DNA of 61,737 nucleotides from Candidatus Cloacimonadales bacterium. Lineage in GTDB: Bacteria; Cloacimonadota; Cloacimonadia; Cloacimonadales; TCS61. This document shows, one piece after another, positions 42,350 to 58,150 of the stretch. The notes under the pieces are model-generated. The model did not search any database and was not told the origin of the DNA. It saw nothing but the letters and a program-made list of their open reading frames with translations. The stretch covers positions 1 through 61,737 of the forward strand of contig JAUSOT010000147.1 of NCBI GenBank assembly GCA_030656075.1, in the 5' to 3' direction. The position numbers were made by a program, and so were the translations under genes. How positions within the stretch are numbered: position 1 is the first letter of the stretch; each line of letters opens with the position of its first letter.

Positions 42350-43669
42350 ATGAGTAAAAAAGTAACAATCTTCGGAGCGGGACTTGTCGTGAAGCCGATG
42401 GTGGATTACCTGGCAAAAAAAGGTTATATTGTTACCGTTGCCAGCCGAACTTTAAGCAAAGCTGAAAAATTAGCTGCCCCACATCCCAATGTTTTCGCCA
42501 GACATTTTCTTACCAAAGATGAATCTGCTATGGAAGAATTGGTGAAAAACAGCGATCTGGTTGTGAGCTTGCTTCCAGCAACTTTACACGTTGAAGTCGC
42601 CAAAAAATGTATCGAATTTAAAACAGATATGGTCACCACATCCTATATCAGCCCGGCCATGCGAGCTTTGGATCAGAAGGCCAAAGATGCCGGAATTATC
42701 ATCCTGAATGAAATCGGCGTCGATCCCGGTATCGATCACATGAGCGCCATGAAGATTTTCCACAAAGTTGAAAAAGAAGGCGGCAAGATCGTCAGTTTCA
42801 TGAGCTACTGCGGCGGACTGCCGGCTCCCGATGCCAACACAAATCCTCTGGGTTATAAATTTTCCTGGGCTCCCAAAGGTGTTTTGAAAGCTGCCGGAAA
42901 TGGCGCCAAATATATGAAAGACGGCAAGATCATCGAAATCGACGGACCGGATCTTTTCAAAAATTACTGGTTTGTGGACGTGGAAGGTGCTGGAACTTTT
43001 GAGGCATATCCGAATCGTAATTCTCTCGATTATATCGGCATTTACAATCTGAAAGACGTCAAAACCATGTATCGTGGAACGTTCCGCAATATCAGTCACT
43101 GCGACACATGGTACATTCTTTCTCAGATGGGATTTTATAAAGAAGACGAAATTTTCGACAACCTGACCGGTACGGTGAAAGATTTCATTCTCACTAAAAT
43201 GTTCAAAGTTGGAAAAGACAAATGCTTAAAATGTCTGCTGATGGAAAAATATAATCTTCCGGCCGAAAGTGTGATCCTGAAAAAATTTGCCTGGCTGGGC
43301 TTCTTCGATGAAACGCCGATCCCGATCAAAAAAGGCGGCGCCGTGGATGTGCTGACGGCTATAATGCTGGAAAAAATGTCTTATGAAAAAGGCGAACGCG
43401 ATCTTCTGGTTCTGCATCACCAGTTTGTCGCCGAATATCCCGACAAAACCCAAAAGATTACCTTAACCATGATCGACTACGGAATTCCTAATGGCGATAC
43501 ATCCATAGCTCGCACGGTTTCACTTCCTGCCGCCATCGGCGTGCACATGATCCTGGAAGACAAAATTACTGTGAAAGGCGTTCATATGCCGATCCTGCCG
43601 AATATTTATAATCCTGTGTTGACGGAACTGGAGAAATTGAACATAAAGTTAGTTGAGAGATTTTATTGA
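42350..43669 (+). CDS. Saccharopine dehydrogenase (LYS9 / AASS C-terminal-type, glutamate-forming)
   Basis: Rossmann start KVTIFGAGLVVKP. Long collinear match to the SDH half of eukaryotic AASS/Lys9: TSYISPAMRALD, ILNEIGVDPGIDHM, YCGGLPAP...NPLGYKFSWAPKGVL, EAYPNRNS, YRGTFR. Start at ATG 42350 after cggagg. Confidence 0.85.
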   Translation: MSKKVTIFGAGLVVKPMVDYLAKKGYIVTVASRTLSKAEKLAAPHPNVFARHFLTKDESAMEELVKNSDLVVSLLPATLHVEVAKKCIEFKTDMVTTSYISPAMRALDQKAKDAGIIILNEIGVDPGIDHMSAMKIFHKVEKEGGKIVSFMSYCGGLPAPDANTNPLGYKFSWAPKGVLKAAGNGAKYMKDGKIIEIDGPDLFKNYWFVDVEGAGTFEAYPNRNSLDYIGIYNLKDVKTMYRGTFRNISHCDTWYILSQMGFYKEDEIFDNLTGTVKDFILTKMFKVGKDKCLKCLLMEKYNLPAESVILKKFAWLGFFDETPIPIKKGGAVDVLTAIMLEKMSYEKGERDLLVLHHQFVAEYPDKTQKITLTMIDYGIPNGDTSIARTVSLPAAIGVHMILEDKITVKGVHMPILPNIYNPVLTELEKLNIKLVERFY

Positions 43670-43790
43670 TCTCAAATTACCGACATAAAAATAACTCGTT
43701 CCCAAGTTTCAGCTTGGGAACATTTTGTAATAATGGTTATCAGCGTCGTTACGAAGATGAAACTTCGTAACGAGATAAAAAAGGAATTTT

Positions 43791-45086
43791 ATGAAAACAC
43801 TTGGAATAGTGAAAGAAACAAAAAATAAATGGGAACGCCGCGTTCCTCTGAATCCGCAAGCTGTAAAGGAATTGATCGAAAAAGGCTTCGAAGTTATTAT
43901 TCAGCCGTCTGAAATACGCATTTATACAGATGACGAATTTGAAGCTGTTGGCGCAAAGATAAGTGATGATCTGTCTCAATGTGATTTTGTTATCGGAGTA
44001 AAAGAAATTCCCATCCCTGACATAATTCACGGTATTCCCCATCTTTTCTTTTCTCACACCATCAAAGGACAGGAATACAATATGCCAATGCTGCAATACA
44101 TTTTGGATAATAGCGTTACCTTGCTGGATTATGAAAAGATCGCAGACGAAGAAAACCGCCGCCTGGTTTTCTTTGGTGAATATGCCGGAAATGCCGGCAC
44201 GATAGATACTTTGCATGGCCTTGGCAGAAGATTGAAAGAGCATTATGGTCTCGATACTCCCTTCCTGAAAGTTAAACATGCGTTTCAATATAAATCGGTG
44301 AAAGATGCGATCAAACATCTGAAAACGATCGGTAAAGAAATTGAAGAAAATGGCCTTCCCGATAAAATCGTTCCCTTCAATGTTTTCCTGATGGGATACG
44401 GACACGTGTCGCATGGAGCCAGATTGATCCTGGAAGCGCTTCCCATAGAAGACATTCAGCCGGAAGAATTATTGGCAAAACAATCCGAACTTAAAAACAA
44501 CAAAATATACCTGACCACTTTCAAAGAAAAACACATGGTGGAACGCAAAGATGACGGAGTGTTCACTTTGCCGCATTACTACAACAATCCAAGCAGATAC
44601 AAATCACGGTTAGAAAATTATTTGAATTATTGCAGCGTTTATATCAATGCTATTTATTGGGATCCTCATTCTCCCGTATTTCTGTCAAAAACCGTGTTAC
44701 AAACATTGCAGGGGAAAAAACAAAAACTGATAATTATTGGCGATATTACCTGCGATATCAAAGGCTCGGTAGCCGCCACTGTTAAACATACCTGGCCGGA
44801 TAATCCGGTATTTATCTACGACGCAAAAACAGGAAATATTGCCGACAGTTATGAAGGCGAAGGATTTGCCGTGATGGCGGTGGATAACCTTCCCTGTGAA
44901 TTTCCCAGAGAATCATCAGATAATTTCTCGGCTGGATTAATGCCCTTTATGCAAAGCATGCTTTTGAACGATTATTCTAAATCGATCCATGATTCCAGTC
45001 TGCCGGATGAGATCAAAAAAGCCTGCATCACGCATCAGGGAAATTTGGAAAAAGATTACAAATATTTGAAAGAAGATTTAAAATAA
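43791..45086 (+). CDS. Lysine-ketoglutarate reductase-like protein (LKR/LOR, AlaDH-PNT fold; saccharopine dehydrogenase, lysine-forming type)
   Basis: N-terminus GIVKETKNKWERRVPLNPQAVKELIEKGFEVIIQPS..RIYTDDEF mirrors the LKR half of bifunctional AASS. C-terminal ITCDIKGS...AVDNLPCEFP. Confidence 0.8.
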   Translation: MKTLGIVKETKNKWERRVPLNPQAVKELIEKGFEVIIQPSEIRIYTDDEFEAVGAKISDDLSQCDFVIGVKEIPIPDIIHGIPHLFFSHTIKGQEYNMPMLQYILDNSVTLLDYEKIADEENRRLVFFGEYAGNAGTIDTLHGLGRRLKEHYGLDTPFLKVKHAFQYKSVKDAIKHLKTIGKEIEENGLPDKIVPFNVFLMGYGHVSHGARLILEALPIEDIQPEELLAKQSELKNNKIYLTTFKEKHMVERKDDGVFTLPHYYNNPSRYKSRLENYLNYCSVYINAIYWDPHSPVFLSKTVLQTLQGKKQKLIIIGDITCDIKGSVAATVKHTWPDNPVFIYDAKTGNIADSYEGEGFAVMAVDNLPCEFPRESSDNFSAGLMPFMQSMLLNDYSKSIHDSSLPDEIKKACITHQGNLEKDYKYLKEDLK

Positions 45087-45555
45087 AAGAATTTACTCTG
45101 CCATCGCTTCATTCAATATATCTTGCAGTTAGCAATGTCAGGGTGAGATGAATAGAGTGAAATTTCATTTAAAGTAGAAGTGAAAGAAACCTTGGCAGGA
45201 TTAAGTATATCGCCCGATGTGAAAGAAATCCTGACAAGGTTAATAATCTTTCTCTCGTTCCCAAAGCCCTCTTTGGGAATGTCTATGGAAGCGAAACTCC
45301 TGTTTCGCAGATAGTTTGCAGCTTGTTCCTAAGTTTTTTGGGGGGAACACCGGATAGCGTTACGAAGACGAACTTCGTAACGAGAAAAATAGAGTGTGAT
45401 TTATAAAAGATTTAGCCCCTCCCTGCCCTCCCCAAAGGAGAGGGTAAAGAGTTTATGTCTTTGAAATGCTTTTCCTTCTCCATTGGAGAAGGTGGCTGAG
45501 TGAAACGAAGACGGATGAGGCAACAAAAGAAAATTTATAAAATATAGGAGTAATC

Positions 45556-46740
45556 ATGGCTAAAATCAGTACAGCCGGAAATTATGGAAAGGAAATCCGC
45601 TCCGATTGTATGGCAACACTCGAACTTACCAAAAGCGGCGGATTGAAAATAGATCTGATCAGTAAAGTTAAAGATTATTTCGGAGATCAGATCATTTCCC
45701 TGGCAAAAGAAGAACTCAAATTCTTTGGCATCAAAAACGCCAAATTAAAGATCGAAGACCAAGGAGCACTGGATTTTGTGATCGCTGCCAGAATTGAGGC
45801 GGCAGTAAAACAACTGATCGAAACCGACCAAGAATATCTGCTCGAAATCATTCCGCAAAATACCGATCAAACTGCGAAAGACCGTCCGAGAAGATCTCGT
45901 CTTTACCTGCCGGGAAACACACCCAAACTTGCTTTGAATGCCGGCATTTACAAACCGGACGGTATCATTCTTGATCTGGAAGATTCTGTGGCTCCCGACA
46001 AGAAATTTGAAGCAACCATCCTGGTGCGAAACACGCTTCGTTCTGTGAACTTCTATGGTGCGGAAAGAATGGTTCGCATCAATCAACTGCCGCAAGGACT
46101 CGATGATCTCGATCACATCATTCCGCAGCATGTGAATGTGATTCTCGTGCCAAAATGCGAAACAACAGACCAGCTCAAAGCAGCGAATAATAAAATTGCC
46201 AAAATCAAAAAAGAGAAAAATCTGAATTATGAAGTCTGGTTAATTCCGATCATAGAAAGTGCATTGGGAGTGATCAATTCCTATCAAATTGCCTGCTGTG
46301 AAAATGTGGTTGGACTGGCTATCGGTTTGGAAGATTACACCGCCGATCTGGGAACGCAGCGAACTGCCGAAGGCAACGAATCTTTCTTTGCTCGCTCTCA
46401 AATTGTGAATTCCGCTCGGGCAGCCAAAGTTCAGTCGTTCGATTCGGTGTTTTCTGATGTGAATGATATGGAAGCCCTCAAGCAGAATGTTCTTACTTCC
46501 AAATCTCTGGGTTTTGATGGAATGGGCTGCATTCATCCCCGCCAGATTCCGGTGATCCACGCTAATTTTGCTCCGACTGAAAAGGAAATCGAAAAAGCAA
46601 AGCAGATAGTAGCTGCCTTCCAAGAAGCAAAGGAAAAGGGATTAGGAGTCGTGTCTCTTGGTTCCAAAATGATCGACGCACCGGTGGTAAAACGGGCTCA
46701 GAAAGTATTGGAACTAGTAAGCGTCGGAGGAAATAACTAA
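45556..46740 (+). CDS. citDE: Citrate-lyase-type fusion: acyl carrier (gamma, CitD) domain + citryl-CoA-lyase (beta, CitE) domain
   Basis: Residues 1 to about 95 are CitD-like, with the prosthetic-group serine context GKEIRSDCMATLEL. The rest is CitE/HpcH-like: RRSRLYLPGNTPK, GIILDLEDSVAP, RINQL, VPKCET, IESALGV, GLEDYTADLG, DGMGCIHPRQI. Confidence 0.8.
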   Translation: MAKISTAGNYGKEIRSDCMATLELTKSGGLKIDLISKVKDYFGDQIISLAKEELKFFGIKNAKLKIEDQGALDFVIAARIEAAVKQLIETDQEYLLEIIPQNTDQTAKDRPRRSRLYLPGNTPKLALNAGIYKPDGIILDLEDSVAPDKKFEATILVRNTLRSVNFYGAERMVRINQLPQGLDDLDHIIPQHVNVILVPKCETTDQLKAANNKIAKIKKEKNLNYEVWLIPIIESALGVINSYQIACCENVVGLAIGLEDYTADLGTQRTAEGNESFFARSQIVNSARAAKVQSFDSVFSDVNDMEALKQNVLTSKSLGFDGMGCIHPRQIPVIHANFAPTEKEIEKAKQIVAAFQEAKEKGLGVVSLGSKMIDAPVVKRAQKVLELVSVGGNN

Positions 46741-48302
46741 TGAAAAAAGCAGATAAATTTGTGCTGAATGCTGCGGGACGAATGGTTCCAACCATCGTGA
46801 ATGGAAGAAAAGTGATCCCGTTCATGGGAGTGAATAAATACTGGCCAACTCACAAAGGCGCTGCTCCGCACGTTCCTACCTGTATCGATTATCCGGCAGA
46901 TGGAAATAAGATCGTCGAAACATTAAAAGAAGCTCTCATCAAATCAGGTTTGAAAGATGGAATGACGATTTCAACTCATCATCATTACAGGAACGGAGAC
47001 TTCCTGGCTAACCAGGTTTTCGACATTGCAGCGGAACTCGGCGTGAAGAATTTGATCTGGGTTCCCAGCGCAGCTTTTCCCTGTCATGCACCGATCATCA
47101 AACATATTGAATCCGGCGTTGTTCATCATATCGAAGGAAGTTTGAACGGACCTTTGGGAGATTTTTGCAGTCGTGGAAAAATGCCCGGATTGGGCTATTT
47201 GAGAAGTCATGGTGGAAGATATCGCGCCATTGCTGATGGTGAACTACACATCGATATCGCTGTGATGGGCGCTTCAGCTTCAGATATGACCGGTAATGCC
47301 AACGGTGTGATGGGAAAGCATCCATTCGGGCCAATGGCTTTCACCAAAGCCGACGTGAAATATGCCGATCGAACTATCGTTGTCACCGACACGTTGATTG
47401 ATTTTCCCTGCTATCCCTGGGAGATCATGGGAAATGATGTCGATTTTGTCGTGGTGGTCGATCAAATCGGTGATCCTGATCAAATCGTTTCAGGAACTAC
47501 CAAGATAACAAATAGTCCCGATAGATTATTAATCGCGGAATATTGCGCCAAATTCATCGATGCCGCCGGCATTCTGAAAGATGGAATCAGCTTCCAGGCT
47601 GGCGCCGGAGGAACTTCCCTCGCTTTTGTTCATTTCGTGAAAGAAATTATGCTGAAAAAGGGAATCAAAGCAAAATGCCTAATGGGTGGCAGTACAAAAT
47701 TCCTGGTCGAACTTTTGGAAAGTGGGCTAACAGAATATATTTTTGAAGGTCAGGCCTTCGATCTGGATGCGATCAGATCATTGCGTGATAATCCCAATCA
47801 CATTCCCATCGCAGTTTTTGATTCCTATGATTTTCATGCCAAAGGGAACCTGGCCAGAATGATGGATGTGATCGTGCTGGGCAGCACAGAAGTTGATGTC
47901 ACTTTCAATGCCAATTGCGTTTCTCACAGCGACGGCAGAATGCTACATGGAATTGGTGGTTTTCAGAATTGCATGATAGCCAAATGCACAATTCTCGCAG
48001 TTCCATCTTTCCGGGACAGAATTCCGGTGATCAAAGATGAAGTGACAACGCTCGTTGCTCCGGGTGAATTGGTCGATGTGATCGTTACAGAGCGTGGGAT
48101 CTGCATCAATCCTCTTAGAAAAGACCTGATCGAAGCAACTAAAGATTCCGGCCTACCAATTCGGGACATAAAAGATTTGAAGAAAGAAATCGATCAAATT
48201 TGCGGAATTCCGGCAAAACCAAAATTATCTGATGAAGCAGTCGCCGTAGTCGAGTGGATCGACGGCACAATTCTCGATACGATCAGAAAAGTAGAGAAAT
48301 AA
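46740..48302 (+). CDS. citF: Citrate lyase alpha subunit (citrate CoA-transferase) family protein, paralog 1
   Basis: CitF blocks GMTISTHHHYRNGD, IHHIEGSLNGPLG, LRSHGGR, AGAGGTSLA, GSTEVDVTFN, LHGIGGFQNC. TAATG overlap with citDE. Confidence 0.85.
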   Translation: MKKADKFVLNAAGRMVPTIVNGRKVIPFMGVNKYWPTHKGAAPHVPTCIDYPADGNKIVETLKEALIKSGLKDGMTISTHHHYRNGDFLANQVFDIAAELGVKNLIWVPSAAFPCHAPIIKHIESGVVHHIEGSLNGPLGDFCSRGKMPGLGYLRSHGGRYRAIADGELHIDIAVMGASASDMTGNANGVMGKHPFGPMAFTKADVKYADRTIVVTDTLIDFPCYPWEIMGNDVDFVVVVDQIGDPDQIVSGTTKITNSPDRLLIAEYCAKFIDAAGILKDGISFQAGAGGTSLAFVHFVKEIMLKKGIKAKCLMGGSTKFLVELLESGLTEYIFEGQAFDLDAIRSLRDNPNHIPIAVFDSYDFHAKGNLARMMDVIVLGSTEVDVTFNANCVSHSDGRMLHGIGGFQNCMIAKCTILAVPSFRDRIPVIKDEVTTLVAPGELVDVIVTERGICINPLRKDLIEATKDSGLPIRDIKDLKKEIDQICGIPAKPKLSDEAVAVVEWIDGTILDTIRKVEK

Positions 48303-48304
48303 TG

Positions 48305-48418
48305 CGTTACGAAGACAAACTTCGTAACGAGGTTATTTCTTGAACAAAAAAGAATCTTGTTCCCAGGTTCGTCTTGGGAATGCAAGAACAGAAGTGTTAC
48401 GAAGACGAACTTCGTAAC
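48305..48418. repeat. Hairpin trio in the citF-citF' spacer
   Basis: Three hairpins: cgttacgaagacaaacttcgtaacg (48305..48329), gttcccaggttcgtcttgggaa (about 48359..48380) and gttacgaagacgaacttcgtaac (48396..48418). The same families occur at 43698, 43747, 45257 and 45358. Confidence 0.85.
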
Positions 48419-48430
48419 GAGAGTAATTAT

Positions 48431-49987
48431 ATGCCAATAAACCAAATAAAAAACGGCGTGGGACGAATGATCCCGACCGAGATCAATGGCAAACCAGTAA
48501 TTCCTTTTATGGGTCTGGGGAAGCATCGTCCAACAGGAAAGATTATTGGACCTTCCATTCCCACCTGCCTGGATTTTCCTGAAGATGGAGATAAAACTCT
48601 ACCTTCTTTGAAGGAAGCGTTACTGAAAGCAGGTTTGAAAGACGGTATGACTATCTCTACTCATCACCACTTGCGAGACGGCGATCTAATTGCCAATGAA
48701 GTTTTTAAAATTGCCAGCGAACGGGGAATCAAATATCTGATCTGGTATCCATCCGCATCTTTTCCATGCCATGAACCGCTAATTGAATATTTGGAAAATG
48801 GCACAATTCATCATATCGAAGGTAGCATGAATGGCCCTTTGGGACGTTTTACTTCCCGCGGAAAAATGAAAGGTGTGGGAATTTTAAGATCTCATGGCGG
48901 CCGCGTTCAAGCTCTTAAAGACGGTGAAGTGATAATCGATATTGCTGTACTGGCAGCTCCAACCTGTGATATGTTTGGCAATTCTACCGGTCAGCACGGA
49001 CCTTCTGCCTGCGGTGTGTTGGGCTATGCCAAAGCTGATGCATTATTTGCCGAAAAAGTGATAATCGTTACTGATAACCTGGTGGATTTTCCCTGCATGC
49101 CGATGGAAATTGAAGGAAATTACGTCGATTACGTTGTGGTTGTAGATAAAATTGGACTTCCCGAAAAAATCATTTCAGGCACAACTCAAATCACCAAAAA
49201 TCCCGACCGGCTTCAATTGGCAGAATTAACAGCTCGTTTTCTGCTGGAATCGGGAATTTTGAAGGATAAATGTTTTATGCAAGCCGGAGCAGGCGGAACT
49301 TCCCTTGCTATCGGCGATTATGTGCATCAGATTTTCAGGGAAAAAGGCTGGAAAATTCAGGTTGGTTTCGGCGGCAGTACCAAGTATATGGTGGACATGC
49401 TGAAAGACGGCACGATGGAACACATCCTGGATGCTCAAGCCTTCGATCTGGAAGCTGTTCGCAGCATTGAAGAAAATGCCAATCATCATCACTATCCGGT
49501 TTTCAATGCTTATAATTTCCACTCCAAGGGAAACCTGAATTCCATGATGGATATTTCAATTTTAGGAGCTACGGAAGTCGATGTGAATTTCAACGGCAAT
49601 GTCGTCACTCACTCAGACGGCTATTTGTTGCATGGAATCGGCGGTTGGCAAAACTGCCTGCATGCCAAAAATGTGATTCTTCCACTTCCACTGGTTCGCC
49701 ATGGTATTCCTGTTATTCGCGATGAAGTGACAACAGTTGTTGGACCGGGAGAATTAATTGATGTGATCGTTACACAGTTTGGAATTGCGATCAATCCGAG
49801 ACGAACAGATTTGTTGGAAAAAATGAAAAATTCCAATCTTCCAATTAAAACTATCGAAGAATTGAAAGAAGAAGCCGAACGTATCTGCGGAGTTCAGGAA
49901 AAACCAAAATTCACAGATAAGATAGTGGCAGCAGTCAAATGGGTGGACGGCACCGTGATCGATGTAGTGAGACAAGTGGAGGAATAG
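48431..49987 (+). CDS. Citrate lyase alpha subunit family protein, paralog 2
   Basis: Collinear with paralog 1 (GMTISTHHHLRDGD, IHHIEGSMNGPLG, LRSHGGR, AGAGGTSLA, GATEVDVNFN, LHGIGGWQNC). Start at ATG 48431 (MPINQIKNG), parallel to the paralog-1 N-terminus. Confidence 0.8.
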   Translation: MPINQIKNGVGRMIPTEINGKPVIPFMGLGKHRPTGKIIGPSIPTCLDFPEDGDKTLPSLKEALLKAGLKDGMTISTHHHLRDGDLIANEVFKIASERGIKYLIWYPSASFPCHEPLIEYLENGTIHHIEGSMNGPLGRFTSRGKMKGVGILRSHGGRVQALKDGEVIIDIAVLAAPTCDMFGNSTGQHGPSACGVLGYAKADALFAEKVIIVTDNLVDFPCMPMEIEGNYVDYVVVVDKIGLPEKIISGTTQITKNPDRLQLAELTARFLLESGILKDKCFMQAGAGGTSLAIGDYVHQIFREKGWKIQVGFGGSTKYMVDMLKDGTMEHILDAQAFDLEAVRSIEENANHHHYPVFNAYNFHSKGNLNSMMDISILGATEVDVNFNGNVVTHSDGYLLHGIGGWQNCLHAKNVILPLPLVRHGIPVIRDEVTTVVGPGELIDVIVTQFGIAINPRRTDLLEKMKNSNLPIKTIEELKEEAERICGVQEKPKFTDKIVAAVKWVDGTVIDVVRQVEE

Positions 49988-49988
49988 C

Positions 49989-52043
49989 ATGAAAATTTTG
50001 ATCGTTTTTGTAGTTTGTTTATCGTTTCTGCCGCTGCCGGGCAAAGTTACTATGAACGAATACGGACATATTTCCAATATTGAGAAGCAACTTGATGAGA
50101 AATTTCTGGTCGAAGATAATGAGTATTTCATCCGGATCGACAACCTGAAATTAGCAGGAAATTCCCTGTTTGAATTACCTAACGGTTATTTGACTTTGGT
50201 AACGATAGAAGAAAACATTCCCACCTGGCTGCGAATTTATGACAAAAACGGTTACGAAAGATTTCTTCAGAAATTTCCGAAAGTCATCAATTTATCATTA
50301 TCCGAAAACAAAAGTTTTGCAGCATTTTCCGATGGAAAGGAACTTGTGGTTTTAAACTTGGAAAATTTCAATATCGACAGATTTCCAAATTCGGTTGTTT
50401 TTGCTGTAGATAATTTTGGACGTCCTGCCTTCATTACCGATAATTCGCTCATTTTGATAAATCGTAATTTCAGTTTGGAAAGCATTCCGCAAAAAATCCT
50501 TTTTTTCAGAAATGAACCTTTGATTTTCACCTCCGAACATATTTATAAAATCGCAGATAATCTTAAATCATTATACACATTTGGCGGCAAGTATTTCGAG
50601 GCAGAAGTTATTGATGAAAAGCTATATTTCGTAGAAAGAACCAAGCTGGAAACCGGATTTCGTTTTCAACTTTTTTCAAGTTTCGATTTGATGAATTTTT
50701 CCGGAGAAACTACCTGCGATTATCAACAGGAAAAAAACCGTACACATGAAGAGATTCAATGCCCTCTGCTTTACGGAATCGGAGATTATGCCTTTCCTGT
50801 TGGCAACAGTTACGGAGAACATCAAAATTACGGAGGCGATTCCTATGCTCATCCCGGTGTAGATTTTTTGGGCGAAGATTATCAGGAAGTTTATGCCGTG
50901 CACGACGGTTATGTGAAAGCCGTGCTGACTACCGGTGGAAGCGCTTACTGGAGAATTGCCATTGCCGATCAGAATCTTCCGGAGGAAACAGAGGGCTATC
51001 TTTATGCTCATCTGAATCAAAATTCAATCACTGTGAATGCCGGAGGCGAAGTGCAGGCCGGCGATCAACTCGGCACTCTTTACGATTGGCCTGTTTATGG
51101 TTTTACACACACGCATTTTGCGCGGGTAAAAGATGAAGGAACTTTCTGGAATGGAACCTGGTGGACGGTCGATAATCCTCTGGTGGATGTTACCAACATA
51201 CAGGATTCGATCCCGCCTGTATTTGAAAATGCTATTAATGACGACAAGTTCGCTTTTCGAACTGCTGCAGGAAATTATCTCGATCCGTTAAATTTGCAGG
51301 GAGAATTTGATATCATTGCCAAATGTCATGATTTATGCAATTGTGATTGGCGGATCGACGTGTGGGATTTACGTTTTTCACTGCACCCTGCCAGCAATCC
51401 CGATTCCACTTTGTACGAACTGTTTAGCTTCAAATTCGATATGTTGCTCGATGAGTATTTCGGCAATTATTGGACTGACCTGGCTGTTAATACTATCTAT
51501 TCCCAAGACGATATCTGTCAATCGATGGGTAATTATGACGTGCGGGATTATTATCATATAATCACAAATTCCGATGGAGATTCGCTCATCACAGAAAATG
51601 ATGAGCCGCAGCTTTTCGATTCGACCCAGTTCGACGACGGCTTCTATTATTTCAAGGTTACCGCTCGTGATGCCTGCCTGAACACGACAATCGATTCGAT
51701 GGTTGTATCTTTCAATAATGGCGTTTCAACTGAAAATGAGCTTCCTGAAAATGAAGTCTTTCTGACCAATTATCCGAATCCGTTCAATCCATCCACAACC
51801 ATCTCGTTTGATTTAGACACCGAAAATACCGAAATCGAAATTTATAATTTGAAGGGGCAGAAAGTAAAAGTTTTGGAATGCAGCAATTCTTTTGCTGCAT
51901 ACGCGAGGGACTCGCGTTCTACGCACTCCATAATCTGGGATGGAACAGACCAAACCGGCAAACCGGTTACTTCCGGAATTTATTTTTATAAATTGAAAAC
52001 AAACCATTTTGAAAAAACAAAAAAGATGATTTTGATGAAATAG
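49989..52043 (+). CDS. Secreted M23 (LytM-type) metallopeptidase with T9SS C-terminal sorting domain
   Basis: Signal peptide. M23 motifs HPGVDF...AVHDGYV and GFTHTHFA. C-terminus NYPNPFNPSTTISF...SGIYFYKLK. Confidence 0.75.
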   Translation: MKILIVFVVCLSFLPLPGKVTMNEYGHISNIEKQLDEKFLVEDNEYFIRIDNLKLAGNSLFELPNGYLTLVTIEENIPTWLRIYDKNGYERFLQKFPKVINLSLSENKSFAAFSDGKELVVLNLENFNIDRFPNSVVFAVDNFGRPAFITDNSLILINRNFSLESIPQKILFFRNEPLIFTSEHIYKIADNLKSLYTFGGKYFEAEVIDEKLYFVERTKLETGFRFQLFSSFDLMNFSGETTCDYQQEKNRTHEEIQCPLLYGIGDYAFPVGNSYGEHQNYGGDSYAHPGVDFLGEDYQEVYAVHDGYVKAVLTTGGSAYWRIAIADQNLPEETEGYLYAHLNQNSITVNAGGEVQAGDQLGTLYDWPVYGFTHTHFARVKDEGTFWNGTWWTVDNPLVDVTNIQDSIPPVFENAINDDKFAFRTAAGNYLDPLNLQGEFDIIAKCHDLCNCDWRIDVWDLRFSLHPASNPDSTLYELFSFKFDMLLDEYFGNYWTDLAVNTIYSQDDICQSMGNYDVRDYYHIITNSDGDSLITENDEPQLFDSTQFDDGFYYFKVTARDACLNTTIDSMVVSFNNGVSTENELPENEVFLTNYPNPFNPSTTISFDLDTENTEIEIYNLKGQKVKVLECSNSFAAYARDSRSTHSIIWDGTDQTGKPVTSGIYFYKLKTNHFEKTKKMILMK
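51879..51917. repeat. Twin perfect hairpins embedded in the T9SS C-terminal domain coding sequence
   Basis: tgcagca-attcttt-tgctgca followed by acgcgag-gga-ctcgcgt. Translated as ECSNSFAAYARDSRS, at the same position as the insert in the NlpC/P60 CTD. Confidence 0.8.
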
Positions 52044-52153
52044 TGTCCGTACTGGGGACACAAATAAATTCGATCTTTAAAATAAAAAACAATAAAAATA
52101 CAGTCCGGTTTCTGTCCTTCCCAAAAGACTACGCCGGAACAAGGAGAAAGCAA

Positions 52154-53341
52154 ATGAGCAAAAGAACAATAGTTACGATGCCGGGAGACGGCATTGGCAA
52201 AACTGTATTGCCAGAAGCGATCCGTGTGCTGGATGCTGTGGGCTTTGAGGCCGATTATGTGCATGCCGATATCGGCTGGGAATTCTGGTGCAAGGAAGGC
52301 AATCCGCTTCCGCAACGAACACTTGATCTGATCGAAAAGCACAAAATCGCTCTGTTTGGAGCCATCACTTCCAAACCAAAAAGCGAAGCAGTCAAAGAAC
52401 TCGACCCCGCTTTAGCCGGTAAAGGCTATGTTTACTACAGTCCCATCGTGGGATTGCGTCAGCATTTTATGCTGGATATCTGTCAACGTCCCTGCATTTC
52501 TTTTAAAGGAAATCCGCTCAATTTCATCCGCAAAGGACCGAATGACACGATCGAAGAACCGGAAGTAAATGTAGTTGTCTTCCGTCAGAATACGGAAGGA
52601 TTGTATGGCGGTGTGGAATGGACAGATCCGCCACAGCAGGTTTATGATGCTTTTATGACACATCCTAAGTTCAGTAAGAATTTCGGCTGGTGTCCCAAAG
52701 ATGAATTAGCGATTTCTACGCGAATTTTCACCAAAAAATATTCGGAAAGAATTATTCGAGCGGCATTTGAATATGCCAAAAAATTCGGTTACAAACGCGT
52801 GACTTTATGCGAAAAACCAAATGTAATCCGCGAAACCAGCGGCATGATGCTGGCTATCTGCCGAAATATGACAAAAGAATATGAAGGCATCCACTTCGAT
52901 TACACAAACATCGATGCACAGATGATGTGGCTGACCAAAGATCCCGAAAAATATGGTGTAATTATCGCTGGAAATATGTTTGGTGATATTGTTTCCGATG
53001 GTTTTGCGGGTTTAGTTGGTGGTCTTGGATTTGCCTGCAGTGCCAATATTGGTGAAGAAGTTGCTATCTTTGAACCTACTCACGGTTCCGCTCCGAAATA
53101 TGAAAATCTAAATCCTTCCATAGTCAATCCCATCGCGATGATCATGAGCGCCTGCATGATGCTCGATTATCTCGGTGAAGTGGGCAAAGCAGATCGTATC
53201 CGTAAAGCAATTGCTAAAGTTGTGGAAGAAGGCAAAGTTCGCGCCTATGATATGCTAAAACTGCGCGGCAGTCAGGAAGTTATGCAACAAGGCGCTGCTT
53301 CCACATCTGAAATGACAGATGCAATTATTGCGGCATTATAA
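52154..53341 (+). CDS. Beta-decarboxylating dehydrogenase (isocitrate / homoisocitrate / isopropylmalate dehydrogenase family)
   Basis: TMPGDGIGKTVLPEA, substrate loop YYSPIVGLRQHFMLDICQRP, NTEGLYGG, NMFGDIVSDGFAGLVGGLG, FEPTHGSAPK. Start at ATG 52154 after aaggag. Confidence 0.82.
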   Translation: MSKRTIVTMPGDGIGKTVLPEAIRVLDAVGFEADYVHADIGWEFWCKEGNPLPQRTLDLIEKHKIALFGAITSKPKSEAVKELDPALAGKGYVYYSPIVGLRQHFMLDICQRPCISFKGNPLNFIRKGPNDTIEEPEVNVVVFRQNTEGLYGGVEWTDPPQQVYDAFMTHPKFSKNFGWCPKDELAISTRIFTKKYSERIIRAAFEYAKKFGYKRVTLCEKPNVIRETSGMMLAICRNMTKEYEGIHFDYTNIDAQMMWLTKDPEKYGVIIAGNMFGDIVSDGFAGLVGGLGFACSANIGEEVAIFEPTHGSAPKYENLNPSIVNPIAMIMSACMMLDYLGEVGKADRIRKAIAKVVEEGKVRAYDMLKLRGSQEVMQQGAASTSEMTDAIIAAL

Positions 53342-53418
53342 ACAACCAAAACTTCCGAAGTTTCTTGTGGGATTTTCTTGGAAGATAAACTTCGTAAGTT
53401 CTAAATAGGAGAAAAAAA

Positions 53419-53967
53419 ATGATGAATATGCTGGAACTCTGGCCGGAAATCGAATGGATTCAAGATGATGATTTACGCGAAAAAGTTACCAGAACCTGGG
53501 AAGCTGCTTTGCAGAGAAGTGTACTCACTGCTACCGATTTGCAGACTATTCCTTTCACTTTGCTCTGCGGTCCCGACCTGAAAGTTACTTTCATGGATCA
53601 TAAACGCAGCGTGGTGCATATTGCCAAAGCTGCCGGTGAAAAATGTAATGAGTTTTATCATGGTGAACTTCCCGTTAACATGGATGTTCTTATTGCTGGT
53701 GCGATTCTGGCAGACGTTGGAAAACTTTTGGAATATGTACTGGATGAAAACGGCAAAGCTGTGCAGGGAACGTATGGCAAATATTTGCGGCATCCCTTCA
53801 GCGGTGTTTCATTGGCAGAAGAATTTGGCATTTCAGCAGAAGTTTGTCACATCATCGCTACTCACGCCGGAGAAGGTGACATGGTGAAAAGAACCACTGA
53901 AGCTTATCTGGTTCATCATGCCGATTTCATGACTTTCCTGCCGTTTAAGAGCAGATTGCAGGTGTAG
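53419..53967 (+). CDS. HD-domain-like protein with variant metal motif
   Basis: HD-superfamily layout (DHKRSVVHIAKAA ... AGAILADVGKLLEY ... HIIATHAGEGD ... LVHHAD). The canonical H-D doublet reads A-D. Confidence 0.5.
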   Translation: MMNMLELWPEIEWIQDDDLREKVTRTWEAALQRSVLTATDLQTIPFTLLCGPDLKVTFMDHKRSVVHIAKAAGEKCNEFYHGELPVNMDVLIAGAILADVGKLLEYVLDENGKAVQGTYGKYLRHPFSGVSLAEEFGISAEVCHIIATHAGEGDMVKRTTEAYLVHHADFMTFLPFKSRLQV

Positions 53968-54155
53968 AGCGACCATGTCTTTCTGACGTTTCTTGCACGC
54001 CGTTCTCAGGAAGAATATAAAGTAATAGATGTGCAAACTCCCCTTCGTAAGGGGAGACTCAGAGGGGTTTGGCAAGATCAATAATAACTGATCTTTTGAG
54101 GAAAACCCCCTATAAGTCCCCCTTCCAAGGGGGAAGAAGAAACAAGGAGTAAAAT

Positions 54156-55961
54156 ATGGCTTTAACATTAATAGAAAAAATCCTGGCAAACCACAGTGGC
54201 AAAGATGTGGTGAAGCCGGGAGAAATCATCGATATTGAAATCGATGTGCGCGTTGCCCGTGATTTCGGCGGTGCTAATGTTGTAAAAAATTTAGTGAATA
54301 ATGGTTTGGAAGTTGATGATGTTTTCAAGACGTTTTTCACTTTTGACTGCAATCCCACCGGCAGCGACCAAAAGTACGCAGCCAATCAGCAATACTGCCG
54401 ACTTTATGCTCGCGAAAAAGGCATCAAAATTTATGATATCGATGCCGGAATTGGAACTCATCTCGTCATTGAAAAAGGCATTGCTTATCCCGGTTGTACC
54501 ATAGTTTCCACCGATTCCCACGCCAATATTCTGGGAGCGATCGGCGCTTTTGGCCAGGGAATGGGAGATCAGGATATTGCCGCAGCCTGGGCAAATGGCA
54601 AGAGCTGGTTCAAAGTTCCCAAATCCGTGAAAATTACTTTGAACGGCAAGCGTCCGGCTAACGTTTATGCCAAAGATATCGTGCTGAATCTGCTGAATAA
54701 ATTCGGTGCCAATCAGCTTCTGGGATATTCTGTGGAAATCTATGGCGAAGATGTCGAGAACTTCACTCTGGATCAGCGCATCACGATATCTTCCATGGCT
54801 ACCGAGATGGGAGCGATCATCATTCTCTTCCCACCCAATGACGAAGTCATCAAATACGCCGAAGAACGTTCCGGACGGAAAATTGCCAAAATTCTGGCAG
54901 ATGAAGATGCTGTTTACGAGCAGAAATTTGAATTGGATATGAGCAAATTCGTACCGATGATGTCACGCCCCGGCCATCCCGACGATGCCATCGATATTAA
55001 GGAATTGAAGGGATCGAAGATCGATTCCGCTTTTATAGGCAGCTGTACGAACGGCCGTTACGAAGACATGAAGCTGGTGTCCGAAATTCTGAAAGACCGT
55101 AAAGTTGCACCCGGCGTAGTCTTGAAAATCGTTCCTGCTACCGATGCAATCTGGCAGCAACTCTTAGCAGAAGGCATCATCAATATCTTCAAAGATGCCG
55201 GAGCATTGGTCAGTAATGCCGGTTGTGCGGGTTGCGCTGCCGGGCAGGTGGGACAGAACGGACCGGATGAAGTAACCGTGAGTACCGGAAACCGTAATTT
55301 TGCCGGGAAACAGGGAAAAGGAAAAGTTTATCTGGGATCACCTGCCGAAGTTGCCGCTTCTGCTGTTGCAGGTTACATCACCACTCCCGACGACATCCCA
55401 GAAAAACCGGCTGAATTTGCTGCTAAAGGCGGTTTCGGAAAAGTTGCCAAAAAGAAAAAAGCTGTGAGTGAAAAACCGACAGTGGTAGAAGGAAAAGTTT
55501 GGATCATTGAGCAGGATGACATCGACACAGATATGATTTTCCACAATCGTTATCTGACGATCACCGACATCAACGAAATGGGACAATATGCTTTTGATAA
55601 TCTGGCAGGTTGGGAAGATTTTGCTAAAAAAGCCGAAGTCGGTGACATCATCATCACCAACAAAAACTTTGGTGCCGGAAGTTCCCGTCAGCAAGCAGTG
55701 GATTGTTTCAAATCTCTGGGAATTCAAGCGATTCTGGCTGAATCATTCGGTGCGATCTACGAACGAAACGCCATCAACGCCGGCTTCCCAATTCTGACTT
55801 ATTGTTGCATTTCCGAACTGCAATTGAAACAGCGCGATATGATCAAAGTTGATTTGGAAAGTGGAGAAGTTACAAATTTGGAAAATGGCAAATCTCTCAA
55901 AATCAATTCATTCTTCGATGTGCAGATGGAAATTTATAAGAGAGATGGGTTGTTGGGATAA
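54156..55961 (+). CDS. Aconitase-superfamily hydratase, fused large (LeuC/HacA-like) + small (LeuD/HacB-like) subunits, paralog 1
   Basis: N-terminus MALTLIEKILANHSG. Fe-S ligand contexts STDSHA, GSCTNGR, GCAGCAAGQ. Linker with KKKK. Swivel domain GKVWIIEQDDIDTDMI...NFGAGSSRQQA. Confidence 0.82.
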   Translation: MALTLIEKILANHSGKDVVKPGEIIDIEIDVRVARDFGGANVVKNLVNNGLEVDDVFKTFFTFDCNPTGSDQKYAANQQYCRLYAREKGIKIYDIDAGIGTHLVIEKGIAYPGCTIVSTDSHANILGAIGAFGQGMGDQDIAAAWANGKSWFKVPKSVKITLNGKRPANVYAKDIVLNLLNKFGANQLLGYSVEIYGEDVENFTLDQRITISSMATEMGAIIILFPPNDEVIKYAEERSGRKIAKILADEDAVYEQKFELDMSKFVPMMSRPGHPDDAIDIKELKGSKIDSAFIGSCTNGRYEDMKLVSEILKDRKVAPGVVLKIVPATDAIWQQLLAEGIINIFKDAGALVSNAGCAGCAAGQVGQNGPDEVTVSTGNRNFAGKQGKGKVYLGSPAEVAASAVAGYITTPDDIPEKPAEFAAKGGFGKVAKKKKAVSEKPTVVEGKVWIIEQDDIDTDMIFHNRYLTITDINEMGQYAFDNLAGWEDFAKKAEVGDIIITNKNFGAGSSRQQAVDCFKSLGIQAILAESFGAIYERNAINAGFPILTYCCISELQLKQRDMIKVDLESGEVTNLENGKSLKINSFFDVQMEIYKRDGLLG

Positions 55962-56344
55962 ATAAAATAATCTGAGTTTTACTACAGAAATCTGGTGTTT
56001 CGACTACGCTCACCATGACAGATTTCTGTGTTTGAATAAAATATTGTAATCCTGCCTGCCTGACCGAAGCTTGACGAAGGCTGGAGCGAAGTTGAAGAAT
56101 GTGCGCAGGGCATCTCCTGGTTTCCAGGCCCCTGCTTGGAAACCTATTGTAAAAAATAAGTGTGTATCTAATTCTATTTATTCAAAATGCTGAGCTTGTG
56201 TCATCCTGAGCCCTTCGACAAGCTCAGGACAGGCTCTGTCGAAGGACGAAGCATTTGAAAGATATAAATTAACGTCCGAAATCGTTCTTAACTCGCACTT
56301 CGTTGCAAGTCAAGTCCGATTTACAATTCACATTGGAGGAAATA

Positions 56345-58150
56345 ATGGGAAAAACCTTTGTAGAAAAAATTCTGGGAGCGGAAACTGGAGCAATCGTTTT
56401 TCGCAAACCCGATATCATTCTCACTCACGATAACACAGCCAGCATCAAAGTCACGTTCAATAAAATGGGTGGAACCAAAGTTGCCGATCCTGATCAGCTT
56501 TTGGTGGTACTCGATCACAACGCTCCGCCCACCGATGCCAAGCTGGCAAATCAGTATCAAACAATCCGCAATTTCGTCAAAGATCAGGGCATCAAAAAAT
56601 TCCATGACGTCTGCGACGGCATCTGTCACCAGGTGATGAGCTATCATGCCAAACCCGGCATGATCATCGTGGGCAGCGACAGCCATACCTGCACTGCCGG
56701 CGCTTTTAATGCTCTCGCTGCCGGTATCGACCGCACAGAATCGGCCGGAATCTGGAAACGTGGTGAAACCTGGTTCCGTGTTCCCAACACACTCAAAGTA
56801 ACATTGAAAGGAAATCTGCAGTCCGGCGTTTATGCCAAAGATATTTCACTTTGGATAATTGGTATGATTGGCTCGGATGGTGCTAATTATATGAGTATCG
56901 AATTTCACGGTGATGGTGTGAAAACACTTTCCATTTCCCAAAGAATGACCCTGGCCAATCTGGCATCGGAAATGGGTGCTAAAAATGCTGTCTTTCCCGC
57001 TGATGAAGTTCTGGAAGAATTTCTTAAAACCCAAACTTCCGAAGTTTTGGAAACTTCGGAAGTTTTGAAGAACGGCATCTGGGCAGACAAAGATGCCAAA
57101 TATGAAAGAGAGATCGAGATCGATTTAGATAAAATTTTCCCGCTGGTGGCTGCGCCGCATCATGTGGATAATGTGAAAGCTGTTTCAGAAGTGCAGGGAA
57201 TAAAACTTAATCAAGGTTTGATCGGAACCTGTACGAATGGCAGATTGGAAGATTTGGGAATTGCCGCGAAAATCTTGAAAGGCAAAAAAGTAGCGGATGG
57301 ATTCCAACTCTTAGTGATCCCAGCCAGTCGCGAAATTTATTTGGAAGCGATGGAAAAAGGTTATATCAAATCCTTCATCAACTCAGGCGCCAGCGTGCTG
57401 GCAGTTTCCTGCGGTCCGTGTTTGGGAACAGGTCAGGGCATTCCTGCTGATGGTTACACGGTAATTTCCACAGCCAACCGCAATTTCAAAGGCCGCATGG
57501 GAAACAAAGAAGCACAGATTTATCTGGCTTCTCCGGCCTGCGTTGCTTTTAGTGCAATTGCCGGTGAGATCACCGATCCGCGTGGCAAAGCATTTAATGA
57601 TAAATTCCCCTATCCCAAAGCACAAAGTTCAACGGTGGATATCGAACCGGATGATAACAGAAAAGAAAAGGGTGTCTGGAATTATTCCGATGTGGATAAC
57701 CTGAACACCGATCAGATGTTTGCCGGAAATCTCACTTACCAGGTTCTCAGTTCCGATCCTGCTGCCATCATGCCCCATCTTTTCGTGGATTTTGATGAGA
57801 ACTTCGTTAAGAAAGTACAAGCTGGAGATGTGATCATTGCCGGTGAAAATTTCGGCTGCGGCAGTTCGCGTGAACATCCCGCAGTTGGTCTGGCTCATGC
57901 CGGGATAAAAGCCGTCATCGTCAAGTCGGTGAATCGAATATTCTATCGTTCTTCGGTAAATCAGGGTCTGCCAATTATTGTGCTACCGGAAGTGGTAGAT
58001 GCTTACAAACAAGGTGATAAAGTATTTGTGGATATGGAAAACGGTTCTATTAAAATCAATGAAAAAGAATTCAAATTCGCTCCGCTTCCTAAAGAATTGA
58101 TGGCAATTTTCGAAATGAAGGGATTGGTTAACTGGATGAAGGAAAATTAA
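56345..58150 (+). CDS. Aconitase-superfamily hydratase, fused large + small subunits, paralog 2
   Basis: MGKTFVEKILGA, LDHNAP, GSDSHT, GTCTNGR, SCGPCLG. Swivel domain VWNYSDVDNLNTDQM...NFGCGSSREHPA. Start at ATG 56345 after ggaggaa. Confidence 0.82.
   Translation: MGKTFVEKILGAETGAIVFRKPDIILTHDNTASIKVTFNKMGGTKVADPDQLLVVLDHNAPPTDAKLANQYQTIRNFVKDQGIKKFHDVCDGICHQVMSYHAKPGMIIVGSDSHTCTAGAFNALAAGIDRTESAGIWKRGETWFRVPNTLKVTLKGNLQSGVYAKDISLWIIGMIGSDGANYMSIEFHGDGVKTLSISQRMTLANLASEMGAKNAVFPADEVLEEFLKTQTSEVLETSEVLKNGIWADKDAKYEREIEIDLDKIFPLVAAPHHVDNVKAVSEVQGIKLNQGLIGTCTNGRLEDLGIAAKILKGKKVADGFQLLVIPASREIYLEAMEKGYIKSFINSGASVLAVSCGPCLGTGQGIPADGYTVISTANRNFKGRMGNKEAQIYLASPACVAFSAIAGEITDPRGKAFNDKFPYPKAQSSTVDIEPDDNRKEKGVWNYSDVDNLNTDQMFAGNLTYQVLSSDPAAIMPHLFVDFDENFVKKVQAGDVIIAGENFGCGSSREHPAVGLAHAGIKAVIVKSVNRIFYRSSVNQGLPIIVLPEVVDAYKQGDKVFVDMENGSIKINEKEFKFAPLPKELMAIFEMKGLVNWMKEN
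57033..57065. repeat. Inverted pair of aaacttccgaagttt palindromes embedded in frame in the hydratase gene
   Basis: aaacttccgaagttt-tgg-aaacttcggaagttt, translated as TSEVLETSEVL. The same units occur intergenically at 40390, 40431 and 53349. Paralog 1 lacks these residues. Confidence 0.88.

Follow-up and report, generated by a model that had tools for sequence, protein, structure and literature searches.

A putative homo-tricarboxylate gene module, linked to saccharopine-pathway lysine genes in Cloacimonadota

In Antarctic Cloacimonadota, Williams et al. (2021) read a gene cluster as citrate lyase, aconitase and isocitrate dehydrogenase (IDH), forming part of a reverse tricarboxylic acid (TCA) cycle, and a 2025 survey reported that the TCA cycles of this phylum are very incomplete, with citrate synthase almost never present. 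The genome paper of Caldithrix abyssi describes a canonical citrate synthase, AcnA (COG1048) and a monomeric IDH (COG2838), and also lists an "IDH 1.1.1.41, COG0473"; the same paper reports a Thermus-type LysWXZYJ and Hcs locus, with homoaconitase and homoisocitrate dehydrogenase (HICDH) genes "scattered, some in TCA loci". For the corresponding reactions of the alpha-aminoadipate pathway, it has been reported that fungi need two enzymes to convert homocitrate to homoisocitrate (PMC3556520). Here we analyse a cluster at positions 42,350 to 58,150 of a stretch of 61,737 nucleotides (hereafter the window) from Candidatus Cloacimonadales bacterium, an uncultured anaerobe of the phylum Cloacimonadota (GenBank assembly GCA_030656075.1, contig JAUSOT010000147.1, positions 1 to 61,737 of the forward strand), and we argue that it may encode a "homo" version of the citrate to isocitrate reactions that is joined to lysine catabolism.

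The open reading frame (ORF) listing, combined with Pfam and NCBIfam profile searches, recovered the ten genes that an earlier sequence-only reading had claimed, all on the + strand and essentially where that reading had placed them, and its assignment of enzyme classes was upheld by the Pfam, NCBIfam and PDB matches. The closest matches of the dehydrogenase (DH) and of the lysine-2-oxoglutarate reductase (LKR) are Candidatus Cloacimonadota proteins. The features of the cluster are the following:

42350..43669, + strand: SDH, stand-alone saccharopine dehydrogenase, glutamate-forming, of the Lys9 or AASS C-terminal half type (Pfam Sacchrp_dh_NADP and Sacchrp_dh_C)
43791..45086, + strand: LKR, stand-alone lysine-2-oxoglutarate reductase of the AASS N-terminal type (Pfam AlaDh_PNT N and C domains, PF05222 and PF01262)
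45556..46740, + strand: fusion of CitD (acyl carrier protein, ACP) and CitE (lyase beta subunit), proposed homocitryl-ACP lyase (Pfam ACP and HpcH_HpaI)
46740..48302, + strand: CitF1, acyl-ACP:acid transferase, alpha subunit (Pfam CitF, 447 bits)
48431..49987, + strand: CitF2 (Pfam CitF, 451 bits); the ORF opens at TTG 48374, and ATG 48431 is the likely start
49989..52043, + strand: M23 peptidase with a T9SS sorting domain (Pfam Peptidase_M23 and Por_Secre_tail)
52154..53341, + strand: DH, NADP-type beta-decarboxylating dehydrogenase, proposed homoisocitrate dehydrogenase or 2-oxoadipate reductive carboxylase (Pfam Iso_dh)
53419..53967, + strand: HD-fold protein with the degenerate HD motif LADVGK (NCBIfam HDIG, 29 bits)
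54156..55961, + strand: Hyd1, fused LeuC-LeuD-type Fe-S hydratase, proposed cis-homoaconitate hydratase on the homoisocitrate side (hacA_fam, 391.9 bits)
56345..58150, + strand: Hyd2, second fused LeuC-LeuD-type hydratase, proposed homocitrate dehydratase (hacA_fam, 495 bits), its start most likely being ATG 56345
58228..58253, + strand: terminator-like hairpin downstream of Hyd2, an 11-bp stem followed by a T-rich tail

We propose, at a probability of roughly 0.42, that the core of this cluster interconverts 2-oxoadipate with 2-oxoglutarate and acetate, and that in Cloacimonadota it serves anaerobic lysine catabolism. The core would consist of the NADP-type DH and its HD partner, one or two LeuCD- or homoaconitase-type dehydratases, and the ACP-dependent CitDE-CitF lyase, and could be regarded as a "homo" copy of the isocitrate-aconitate-citrate branch in which a citrate-lyase-type enzyme stands in place of homocitrate synthase; in Cloacimonadota it would be co-transcribed with the AASS-type LKR and usually with SDH. 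Lysine would first be converted by LKR and SDH, through saccharopine, to aminoadipate semialdehyde, which enzymes encoded outside the cluster would take to 2-aminoadipate and 2-oxoadipate. DH would then reductively carboxylate 2-oxoadipate with NADPH to homoisocitrate, Hyd1 (or a Lys4-like enzyme) would dehydrate this to cis-homoaconitate, and Hyd2 (or a PrpD-like enzyme) would hydrate it to homocitrate. Finally, CitDE-CitF, acting as an ACP-dependent homocitrate lyase, would release acetate and 2-oxoglutarate, so that the co-substrate of LKR would be regained. What the sequences show is the identity of the genes, a conserved operon structure, a dehydrogenase loop and phylogeny unlike those of IDH, and a homoaconitase equivalog in the orthologous cluster of another phylum; what each enzyme acts on, which way the flux runs and what the HD protein does are inferred. 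The interpretation seems plausible and is partly supported: it is built from known kinds of enzymes but is undescribed in the searchable literature, and our full-text searches returned nothing on a homocitrate lyase, on an aminoadipate pathway run in reverse or on saccharopine in this phylum.

The dehydrogenase carries much of the argument. DH falls below every NCBIfam equivalog cut-off (at best 276 against 500 bits for AksF (AksF_Meth), and 241 against 510 bits for the best IDH model), and its nearest solved structures are an NAD-IDH (6LKY, 209 bits) and then Thermus HICDH (179 bits). We aligned it with E. coli Icd, LeuB, Thermus HICDH (100% identical to 3ASJ) and two solved IDHs. The specificity loop, which indeed reads YVYYSPIVGLRQ as the sequence-only reading had stated, has S-P-I-V-G-L-R where E. 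coli Icd has S113-L-N115-V-A-L-R and Thermus HICDH has G-A-I-R85-Y-L-R. The HICDH of S. pombe (3TY3), by comparison, carries the loop GYSSPIVALRK, that is, S-S-P-I-V-A-L-R against Y-S-P-I-V-G-L-R in the window, with S-P-I-V identical, and the sequence-only reading was thus correct in taking S-P-I-V-x-L-R for a homoisocitrate-dehydrogenase loop. With regard to the gamma-carboxylate residues of IDH, the DH family keeps the Ser at the position of Ser113 and has Ile throughout at that of Asn115, while the position of Arg85 in Thermus HICDH is occupied in DH by Val. In the work of Miyazaki and co-workers from 2003, the R85V variant of the Thermus enzyme reportedly loses its activity on isocitrate and retains that on homoisocitrate, and the Val of DH agrees with this behaviour.

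The same picture is seen in a wider set of sequences. Among 1.84 billion cluster representatives searched, 474 DH relatives were found at E <= 1e-30, and the full-length ones were compared. Sequences of the IDH clade typically read KGPxTTP...S-x-N-V-x-L-R, a few having Thr or another residue at the Asn position, and Asn115 is found in all of the canonical S-x-N-V members of the clade that were surveyed, as well as in all of the solved IDHs examined. The DH family and a large uncharacterised clade have FGAITSKP, followed by an insertion of 13-15 residues and by S-P-[IV]-[VIL]-x-L-R. Lys90 and Tyr94 of the insertion are invariant. In a neighbour-joining (NJ) tree, the S-x-N isocitrate dehydrogenase clade leaves the DH family outside in 88 of 100 bootstraps, a placement in keeping with the earlier reading. 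From its loop and its phylogeny, DH does not appear to be a normal isocitrate dehydrogenase, and we propose that it is an NADP-dependent homoisocitrate dehydrogenase acting as a 2-oxoadipate carboxylating reductase. The nearest relatives of DH outside its family likewise have the insertion, together with an S-P-V-I loop, and are joined to CinA-like molybdopterin-binding domains (Iso_dh with MoCF_biosynth in P0257, P0265, P0268 and P0304) or to an RraA-like aldolase/decarboxylase domain (P0274).

Hyd1 and Hyd2, which share 31.6% identity, both retain the Fe-S ligand motifs CTNGR and CxxC (three Cys ligands). They pass the family models hacA_fam (391.9 and 495.2 bits, respectively; cut-off 385.7) and PRK00402 (418.6 and 502.9; cut-off 385), and fail the aconitase model PRK07229 (331 and 403 bits against 612), with far lower scores for the AcnA, AcnB and mitochondrial models; the NCBIfam results place both hydratases in the LeuC/HacA subfamily and support the earlier reading on this point. 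They also miss the homoaconitase equivalogs HacA_Meth (305 and 436 against 550) and TIGR00139 (238 and 347 against 530), and they lie below the cut-offs of the isopropylmalate (IPM) isomerase equivalogs. Their small-domain loops (NRYLTIT in Hyd1 and GNLTYQV in Hyd2), compared with those of homoaconitase 2PKP (GPYLRTT), the IPM/citramalate isomerase 3VBA (ARYLVYT) and 1V7L (GRYNLTK), do not settle the specificity of either enzyme.

We consider the decisive outside observation to come from another group of bacteria. In all five loci of the Ignavibacteria type, the hydratase slot is occupied by a match to TIGR00139, the fungal LYS4-type homoaconitase equivalog, at 864-871 bits against a cut-off of 530, and this gives independent support for the interpretation. 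The loop of these hydratases, GKYTY, is similar to that of Hyd2 and of the split hydratases found in other lineages, and each of them is followed by a divergent dehydratase of the MmgE/PrpD family and then by the lyase genes. The gene order DH, HD, homoaconitase, PrpD-like protein, CitDE and CitF in these Ignavibacteria/Bacteroidota loci is the order of the steps in the proposed pathway. In five lineages the lyase is found together with a second dehydratase, either Hyd2 or the PrpD-like protein, and loci without the lyase mostly lack this dehydratase too, which agrees with the isomerisation of homocitrate by two enzymes in fungi (PMC3556520). The PrpD-like gene also brought to mind a methylcitrate cycle, a reading that we rejected, given that 2-methylisocitrate is a tertiary alcohol and cannot be the substrate of a dehydrogenase. 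Hyd1 is the usual gene after DH and HD in Cloacimonadota, Calditrichota and Bacteroidota (64-89% identity), and Hyd2 is kept after it in Cloacimonadota and in one further locus (L028).

The link with lysine depends on the two genes at the 5′ side of the cluster. SDH matches yeast Lys9 (2AXQ, 314 bits), the Magnaporthe saccharopine reductase (1E5L, 305 bits) and the SDH domain of human AASS (5L78, 255 bits) over its full length, and LKR is collinear over its full length with the LKR domain of human AASS (8DDA, 266 bits, residues 4-427 against 26-463), the match to yeast Lys1 being weak (64 bits). By these scores, LKR would be of the catabolic AASS type and not of the fungal Lys1 type. LKR lies immediately 5′ of CitDE in 13 of the 14 Cloacimonadota loci with enough upstream DNA (the exception is L015), and SDH adjoins LKR in 9 loci of this phylum. 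In one distant locus (L089), where LKR is only 56% identical, LKR heads the operon 13 nt ahead of CitDE, and the order LKR, CitDE, CitF, DH, HD, Hyd, Hyd is kept with gaps of 3-16 nt, SDH not being adjacent. Both of the Cloacimonadota loci that were found through distant LKR homologs have the same gene order. Given its recurrence in 13 of 14 loci, the linkage is a feature of the operon and not a matter of chance, although it is limited to one phylum; the synteny of LKR/SDH with the lyase, dehydrogenase and hydratase genes that the sequence-only reading depended on is thus kept across Cloacimonadota. Beside these genes, a related Cloacimonadota locus (L003:18562-19695) has a second, shorter gene of the saccharopine dehydrogenase family (377 aa) about 2 kb 3′ of Hyd2, for which the window has no counterpart.

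Outside this phylum the core is found without lysine genes. Scanning one genome per species with a DH alignment, we found that a DH relative is encoded in at least 589 species genomes from many anaerobic phyla, and we retrieved the 80 best loci (71-89% identity); gene counts were made by tblastn and ORF clustering over 83 loci, while some of the negative results cover 86. DH is present in all 83 loci, an HD gene next to it in 56, a LeuCD-type hydratase in 47, CitF in 38, CitDE in 35, LKR in 11 and SDH in 8, and the loci bearing LKR and SDH all belong to Cloacimonadota. The cluster, read as lysine-catabolic from sequence alone, is not specific to lysine: the core occurs in many phyla without LKR or SDH. 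The gene orders found are the following:

Calditrichota: TrmB-like regulator, DH, HD, Hyd1, CitDE, CitF
Ignavibacteria/Bacteroidota (five loci): DH, HD, a hydratase of 656-667 aa, PrpD-like protein, CitDE, CitF
Anaerolineae: CitDE, CitF, DH, HD, split hydratase, PrpD-like protein
Thermodesulfobacteriota: an order like that of Cloacimonadota, minus LKR
Lentimicrobiaceae and other Bacteroidales: DH, HD and Hyd1 only
Other Bacteroidales: methylmalonyl-CoA decarboxylase operon, CitDE, CitF, (pepD), DH, HD
Aminicenantes/Clostridia: split hydratase, DH
L090 and L062: DH and HD alone

In the Bacteroidales loci with the decarboxylase (L040, L056, L059, L065, L066, L074 and L076, at about 1-8200), a methylmalonyl-CoA epimerase and a Na+-translocating methylmalonyl-CoA decarboxylase operon immediately precede CitDE-CitF, with no hydratase within 10 kb. 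Citrate fermentation with oxaloacetate decarboxylase was considered for these loci and rejected, as the Na+-decarboxylase operon beside the lyase genes encodes an acyl-CoA carboxyltransferase and the epimerase, and not OadA. Genes inserted within the module in single loci (AAA_21/DUF4276, CstA, BipA and a T9SS protein) were set aside as mobile or unrelated.

It had been claimed that only the M23 peptidase and the HD-like gene interrupt the run, and this holds for the first but not for the second. The M23 gene occupies its position in the cluster only in some Cloacimonadota (L006, L009, L011, L016 and L017), is absent from others (L003, L010, L088 and L089), and is an insertion of a sub-lineage, outside the conserved module. 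The HD gene, on the other hand, belongs to the module, as it adjoins DH in the 56 loci mentioned above and is the most constant neighbour of DH. The protein is 81-93% identical across phyla, including between Cloacimonadota and Bacteroidota, and its AF2 model (pLDDT 81), with the HD domain of YhaM as best PDB match (E 2.5e-4), suggests a generic HD phosphohydrolase fold. Comparison of the window copy (53419-53967) with those of loci L001, L030, L054, L055 and L061 gave two subtypes: one has the intact dyad LHDVGK (Caldithrix, Aminicenantes and Fermentibacteria), and the other, which includes the window copy, has lost the histidine (LADVGK or LIDIGK), with Ala, Ile or Cys instead. Our guess would be that it is a regulatory or accessory subunit of DH.

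The lyase genes provide all three functions of a citrate lyase, alpha (CitF), beta (CitE) and gamma (CitD). CitE and CitF of the window are about 39% identical to their E. coli counterparts, and the Ser of the motif IRSDC aligns with Ser14 of E. coli CitD, the prosthetic-group serine being kept. The CitD part passes the NCBIfam citD cut-off (73.9 against 63.5 bits), whereas the CitE part is well below that of citE (283.3 against 443.4). CitF1, whose start overlaps the stop of CitDE by 1 nt, is 57.7% identical to CitF2; the latter is found only in this window and is flanked by palindromic repeats, and the related genomes have one CitF. The pair of CitF paralogs noted in the sequence-only reading is not a conserved feature. 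The longer CitF2 ORF, opening at TTG 48374, traverses a palindromic repeat at 48393-48427; translation most likely begins at ATG 48431.

Enzymes of the citrate-lyase type are known for cleavage, and no homolog of LeuA, homocitrate synthase or isopropylmalate synthase was found in any of the 86 loci, with the lyase present in at least 35. In Cloacimonadota, the catabolic direction would be favoured by three features: an LKR of the AASS type as the leading gene of the operon, a DH of the NADP type, and a lyase instead of a synthase. Nevertheless, by analogy with the citrate series, we reason that the overall reaction should be near equilibrium, in which case its direction would be set by sources and sinks.

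Several findings weigh against our proposal. The scores of CitF1 (495.5 bits) and CitF2 (500.9 bits), although both below the citF equivalog threshold (TIGR01584, 501.45), fall only 1-6 bits short of it, and tblastn with the E. coli proteins (E 1e-3) detected none of citC, citX and citG in the window or the 86 loci. DH shares with E. coli Icd an IDH-like insertion and an NADP site: it retains the NADP determinants APKY and the Y and K near the C-terminus, whereas the Thermus and fungal HICDHs carry the NAD-type APDI. The DH clade excludes Thermus-like HICDHs in 60 of 100 NJ bootstraps, the AksF/HICDH equivalog cut-offs are missed, and archaeal IPMDH-like enzymes show similar hydrophobic loops. 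Hyd1 and Hyd2 lack the Arg of the YLRT loop of the methanogen homoaconitase, and in one Latescibacterota locus (L041:332-2260, - strand) a true PRK07229 aconitate hydratase (963 bits, cut-off 612) stands divergently beside DH-HD. No aminoadipate-semialdehyde dehydrogenase or aminotransferase is encoded in the window or in any of the 86 related loci, and in many phyla the core occurs without LKR/SDH, with DH-HD sometimes alone, which the lysine route does not explain. In Caldithrix, with Hcs and LysWXZYJ, a homocitrate lyase would create a potential futile cycle unless regulated. Lastly, the route by itself would, by our own reasoning, conserve no ATP.

Some of these points are shared by the explanation that survives best after our own, which is unlikely in our judgement: an ordinary tricarboxylate branch, in which citrate lyase, aconitases and an NADP-IDH link citrate and 2-oxoglutarate, either in a reductive TCA cycle or in the conversion of glutamate to acetate and oxaloacetate, with LKR present simply as a user of 2-oxoglutarate. 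It is how the genes have been read in print (by Williams et al. 2021, and as IDH EC 1.1.1.41 in the Caldithrix paper), and the CitF scores, the Icd-like NADP motif and insertion of DH and the aconitase in L041 speak for it, as do the very high conservation and wide spread of DH (71% identity or more in at least 589 species), which suggest a central function. It is opposed by the loss of Asn115 throughout the DH family and the exclusion of this family from the IDH clade, and by hydratases that fail all of the aconitase equivalogs, with a homoaconitase equivalog in the Ignavibacteria slot. Citrate, moreover, needs no second dehydratase, and the clusters contain no citrate transporter and no oxaloacetate decarboxylase, nor do they contain citC, citX or citG. 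Caldithrix also argues against it: the "IDH 1.1.1.41, COG0473" of its genome paper is, judging by position, probably the DH ortholog, and the TCA cycle of this organism, which has a canonical citrate synthase, AcnA and IDH elsewhere, does not require the module.

A biosynthetic alpha-aminoadipate pathway seems more improbable still. Here, DH and the hydratases would make lysine, SDH and LKR would run in the fungal direction, and the ACP lyase would be reversed, forming homocitrate from acetate in acetate-rich habitats. The citrate-lyase reaction is near equilibrium, and so the conversion of 2-oxoglutarate and acetate to 2-oxoadipate would be thermodynamically open. SDH is closest to fungal Lys9 and saccharopine reductase, and DH and Hyd1 would be obvious candidates for the homoaconitase and HICDH functions of Caldithrix, whose genes for these are scattered despite its LysWXZYJ and Hcs. 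Caldithrix, however, already has Hcs, a citrate-lyase-type enzyme that acts as a synthase is not known, LKR is of the catabolic type (64 bits to Lys1), aminoadipate reductase and LysW-type genes were not found at any locus, and known biosynthetic HICDHs are NAD-type while DH is NADP-type. The weakest alternative, that the architecture works on alkyl-malates and shortens another 2-oxo acid in reverse by one carbon unit (for example 2-oxobutyrate, which would pass through 3-methylmalate and citramalate to pyruvate and acetate, or 4-methyl-2-oxopentanoate, by way of isopropylmalate), LKR being adjacent for some other reason, we regard as very improbable: DH does have Ile and Val at the positions of Leu90 and Leu91 of IPMDH, a Thermus mutant evolved towards IPMDH (3AH3) has Met for Arg85, the hydratases are equally far from the IPM isomerase equivalogs and citramalate lyase is an ACP-type enzyme, but DH keeps Ser96 (the Icd Ser113 position, in SPIV) and Ser73 (the Thermus HICDH Ser72 position, in ITSKP), its loop is that of the fungal HICDH, a homoaconitase equivalog stands in the Ignavibacteria cluster, and the LKR/SDH linkage is left unexplained.

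Returning to the homocitrate-lyase proposal, we would extend it, a shade more tentatively than for the window itself, to the widespread module as a whole (at least 589 species genomes). This module may be an unrecognised "homo-tricarboxylate" branch, with an ACP-dependent homocitrate lyase, an NADP homoisocitrate dehydrogenase with an obligate HD partner and dedicated homocitrate/homoaconitate dehydratases, which in Cloacimonadota would complete an anaerobic saccharopine pathway from lysine to glutamate/2-oxoglutarate and acetate; the genes at present called IDH, aconitase and citrate lyase in these phyla, from which reverse-TCA potential is deduced, would then be misassigned. If this is true, anaerobic lysine catabolism would have a new route that differs from both aminomutase fermentation and the glutaryl-CoA route, a new enzyme activity, the ACP-dependent homocitrate lyase, would be defined, and a very conserved and widespread dehydrogenase/HD-protein pair would receive a function. 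The proposal would also correct metabolic reconstructions in Cloacimonadota, Calditrichota, Ignavibacteria, Anaerolineae and many uncultured Bacteroidales, in which these genes are now counted towards the TCA or reverse TCA cycle, including claims of carbon fixation.

Three families of short palindromic repeats fill the spaces between the genes of the cluster: CGTTACGAAGACGAACTTCGTAACG; GTTCCCAAG..CTTGGGAAC; and AAACTTCCGAAGTTT. Repeats lie at 45254-45390, 43695-43779, 48303-48427, 53347-53405, 57027-57069, 58228-58253 and 40390-40459. One tandem repeat copy is in frame within Hyd2, where the insertion at 57027-57069 lengthens the protein by 10 residues (TSEVLETSEV) not present in three orthologs, and another lies within the 5′ end of the long CitF2 ORF. 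The function of the hairpin at 58228-58253 is uncertain, because it is a member of a repeat family. No lysine riboswitch or other RNA leader was found near the cluster at the gathering score or at E <= 1.

The remainder of the window holds housekeeping genes, along with a few other features; it has neither an aldehyde dehydrogenase nor an aminotransferase gene. Between a DUF559 gene and a pseudouridine synthase gene, at 38582-38628 on the + strand, there is a match to the Acido-Lenti-1 RNA (RF01687; 38.8 bits, gathering score 37). A complete FeoB (27562-29847) is accompanied by a second FeoB-like gene (36107-37582), in which Pfam matches the Gate and FeoB_C membrane part and not the N-terminal G domain. 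Mid-window (24305-25126) there is a gene for a TIR-domain protein of the CAP12/Pycsar-effector type, and directly 3′ of the cluster, at 59286-61707, there are genes for a Fic-HTH protein, an HNH endonuclease and a DUF3223 protein; these two regions may be defence or mobile islets.

Compared with known systems, the proposed route resembles the upper alpha-aminoadipate pathway of fungi, Thermus and the methanogens (Aks), whose isomerisation and oxidative decarboxylation steps draw on the same three superfamilies of enzymes. The likeness extends to the S-P-I-V loop shared with S. pombe HICDH, to the two dehydratases, as in fungi, and to the TIGR00139 homoaconitase of the Ignavibacteria version. 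It differs in that a CitD-CitE/CitF ACP-dependent lyase replaces homocitrate synthase, in the proposed reversal of direction, and in a DH of the NADP type with two insertions and an HD-fold partner, with DH and the window hydratases missing the HICDH and HacA equivalog cut-offs. With the citrate lyase CitDEF of Klebsiella, E. coli and Lactococcus, the window shares the alpha, beta and gamma functions and the ACP serine; here, however, gamma is fused to beta, CitE stays well short of its equivalog cut-off, citC/citX/citG were not found at the loci, and the genes cluster with homoaconitase-type and HICDH-type genes instead of oxaloacetate decarboxylase or a citrate carrier. As to saccharopine lysine catabolism, known from AASS in animals and plants and from separate lkr and sdh genes in some marine bacteria, LKR and SDH of the window are collinear with the two halves of AASS, but they are separate genes in a strict anaerobe, with no adjacent semialdehyde dehydrogenase, and their downstream partner is the lyase/hydratase/dehydrogenase set and not 2-oxoadipate dehydrogenase or the glutaryl-CoA route. 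Finally, although DH differs from IDH in its specificity loop and phylogeny, and the hydratases belong to families other than aconitase, the reductive TCA branch follows the same reaction logic, one carbon shorter, and has an NADP-type carboxylating dehydrogenase in common with the route proposed here.

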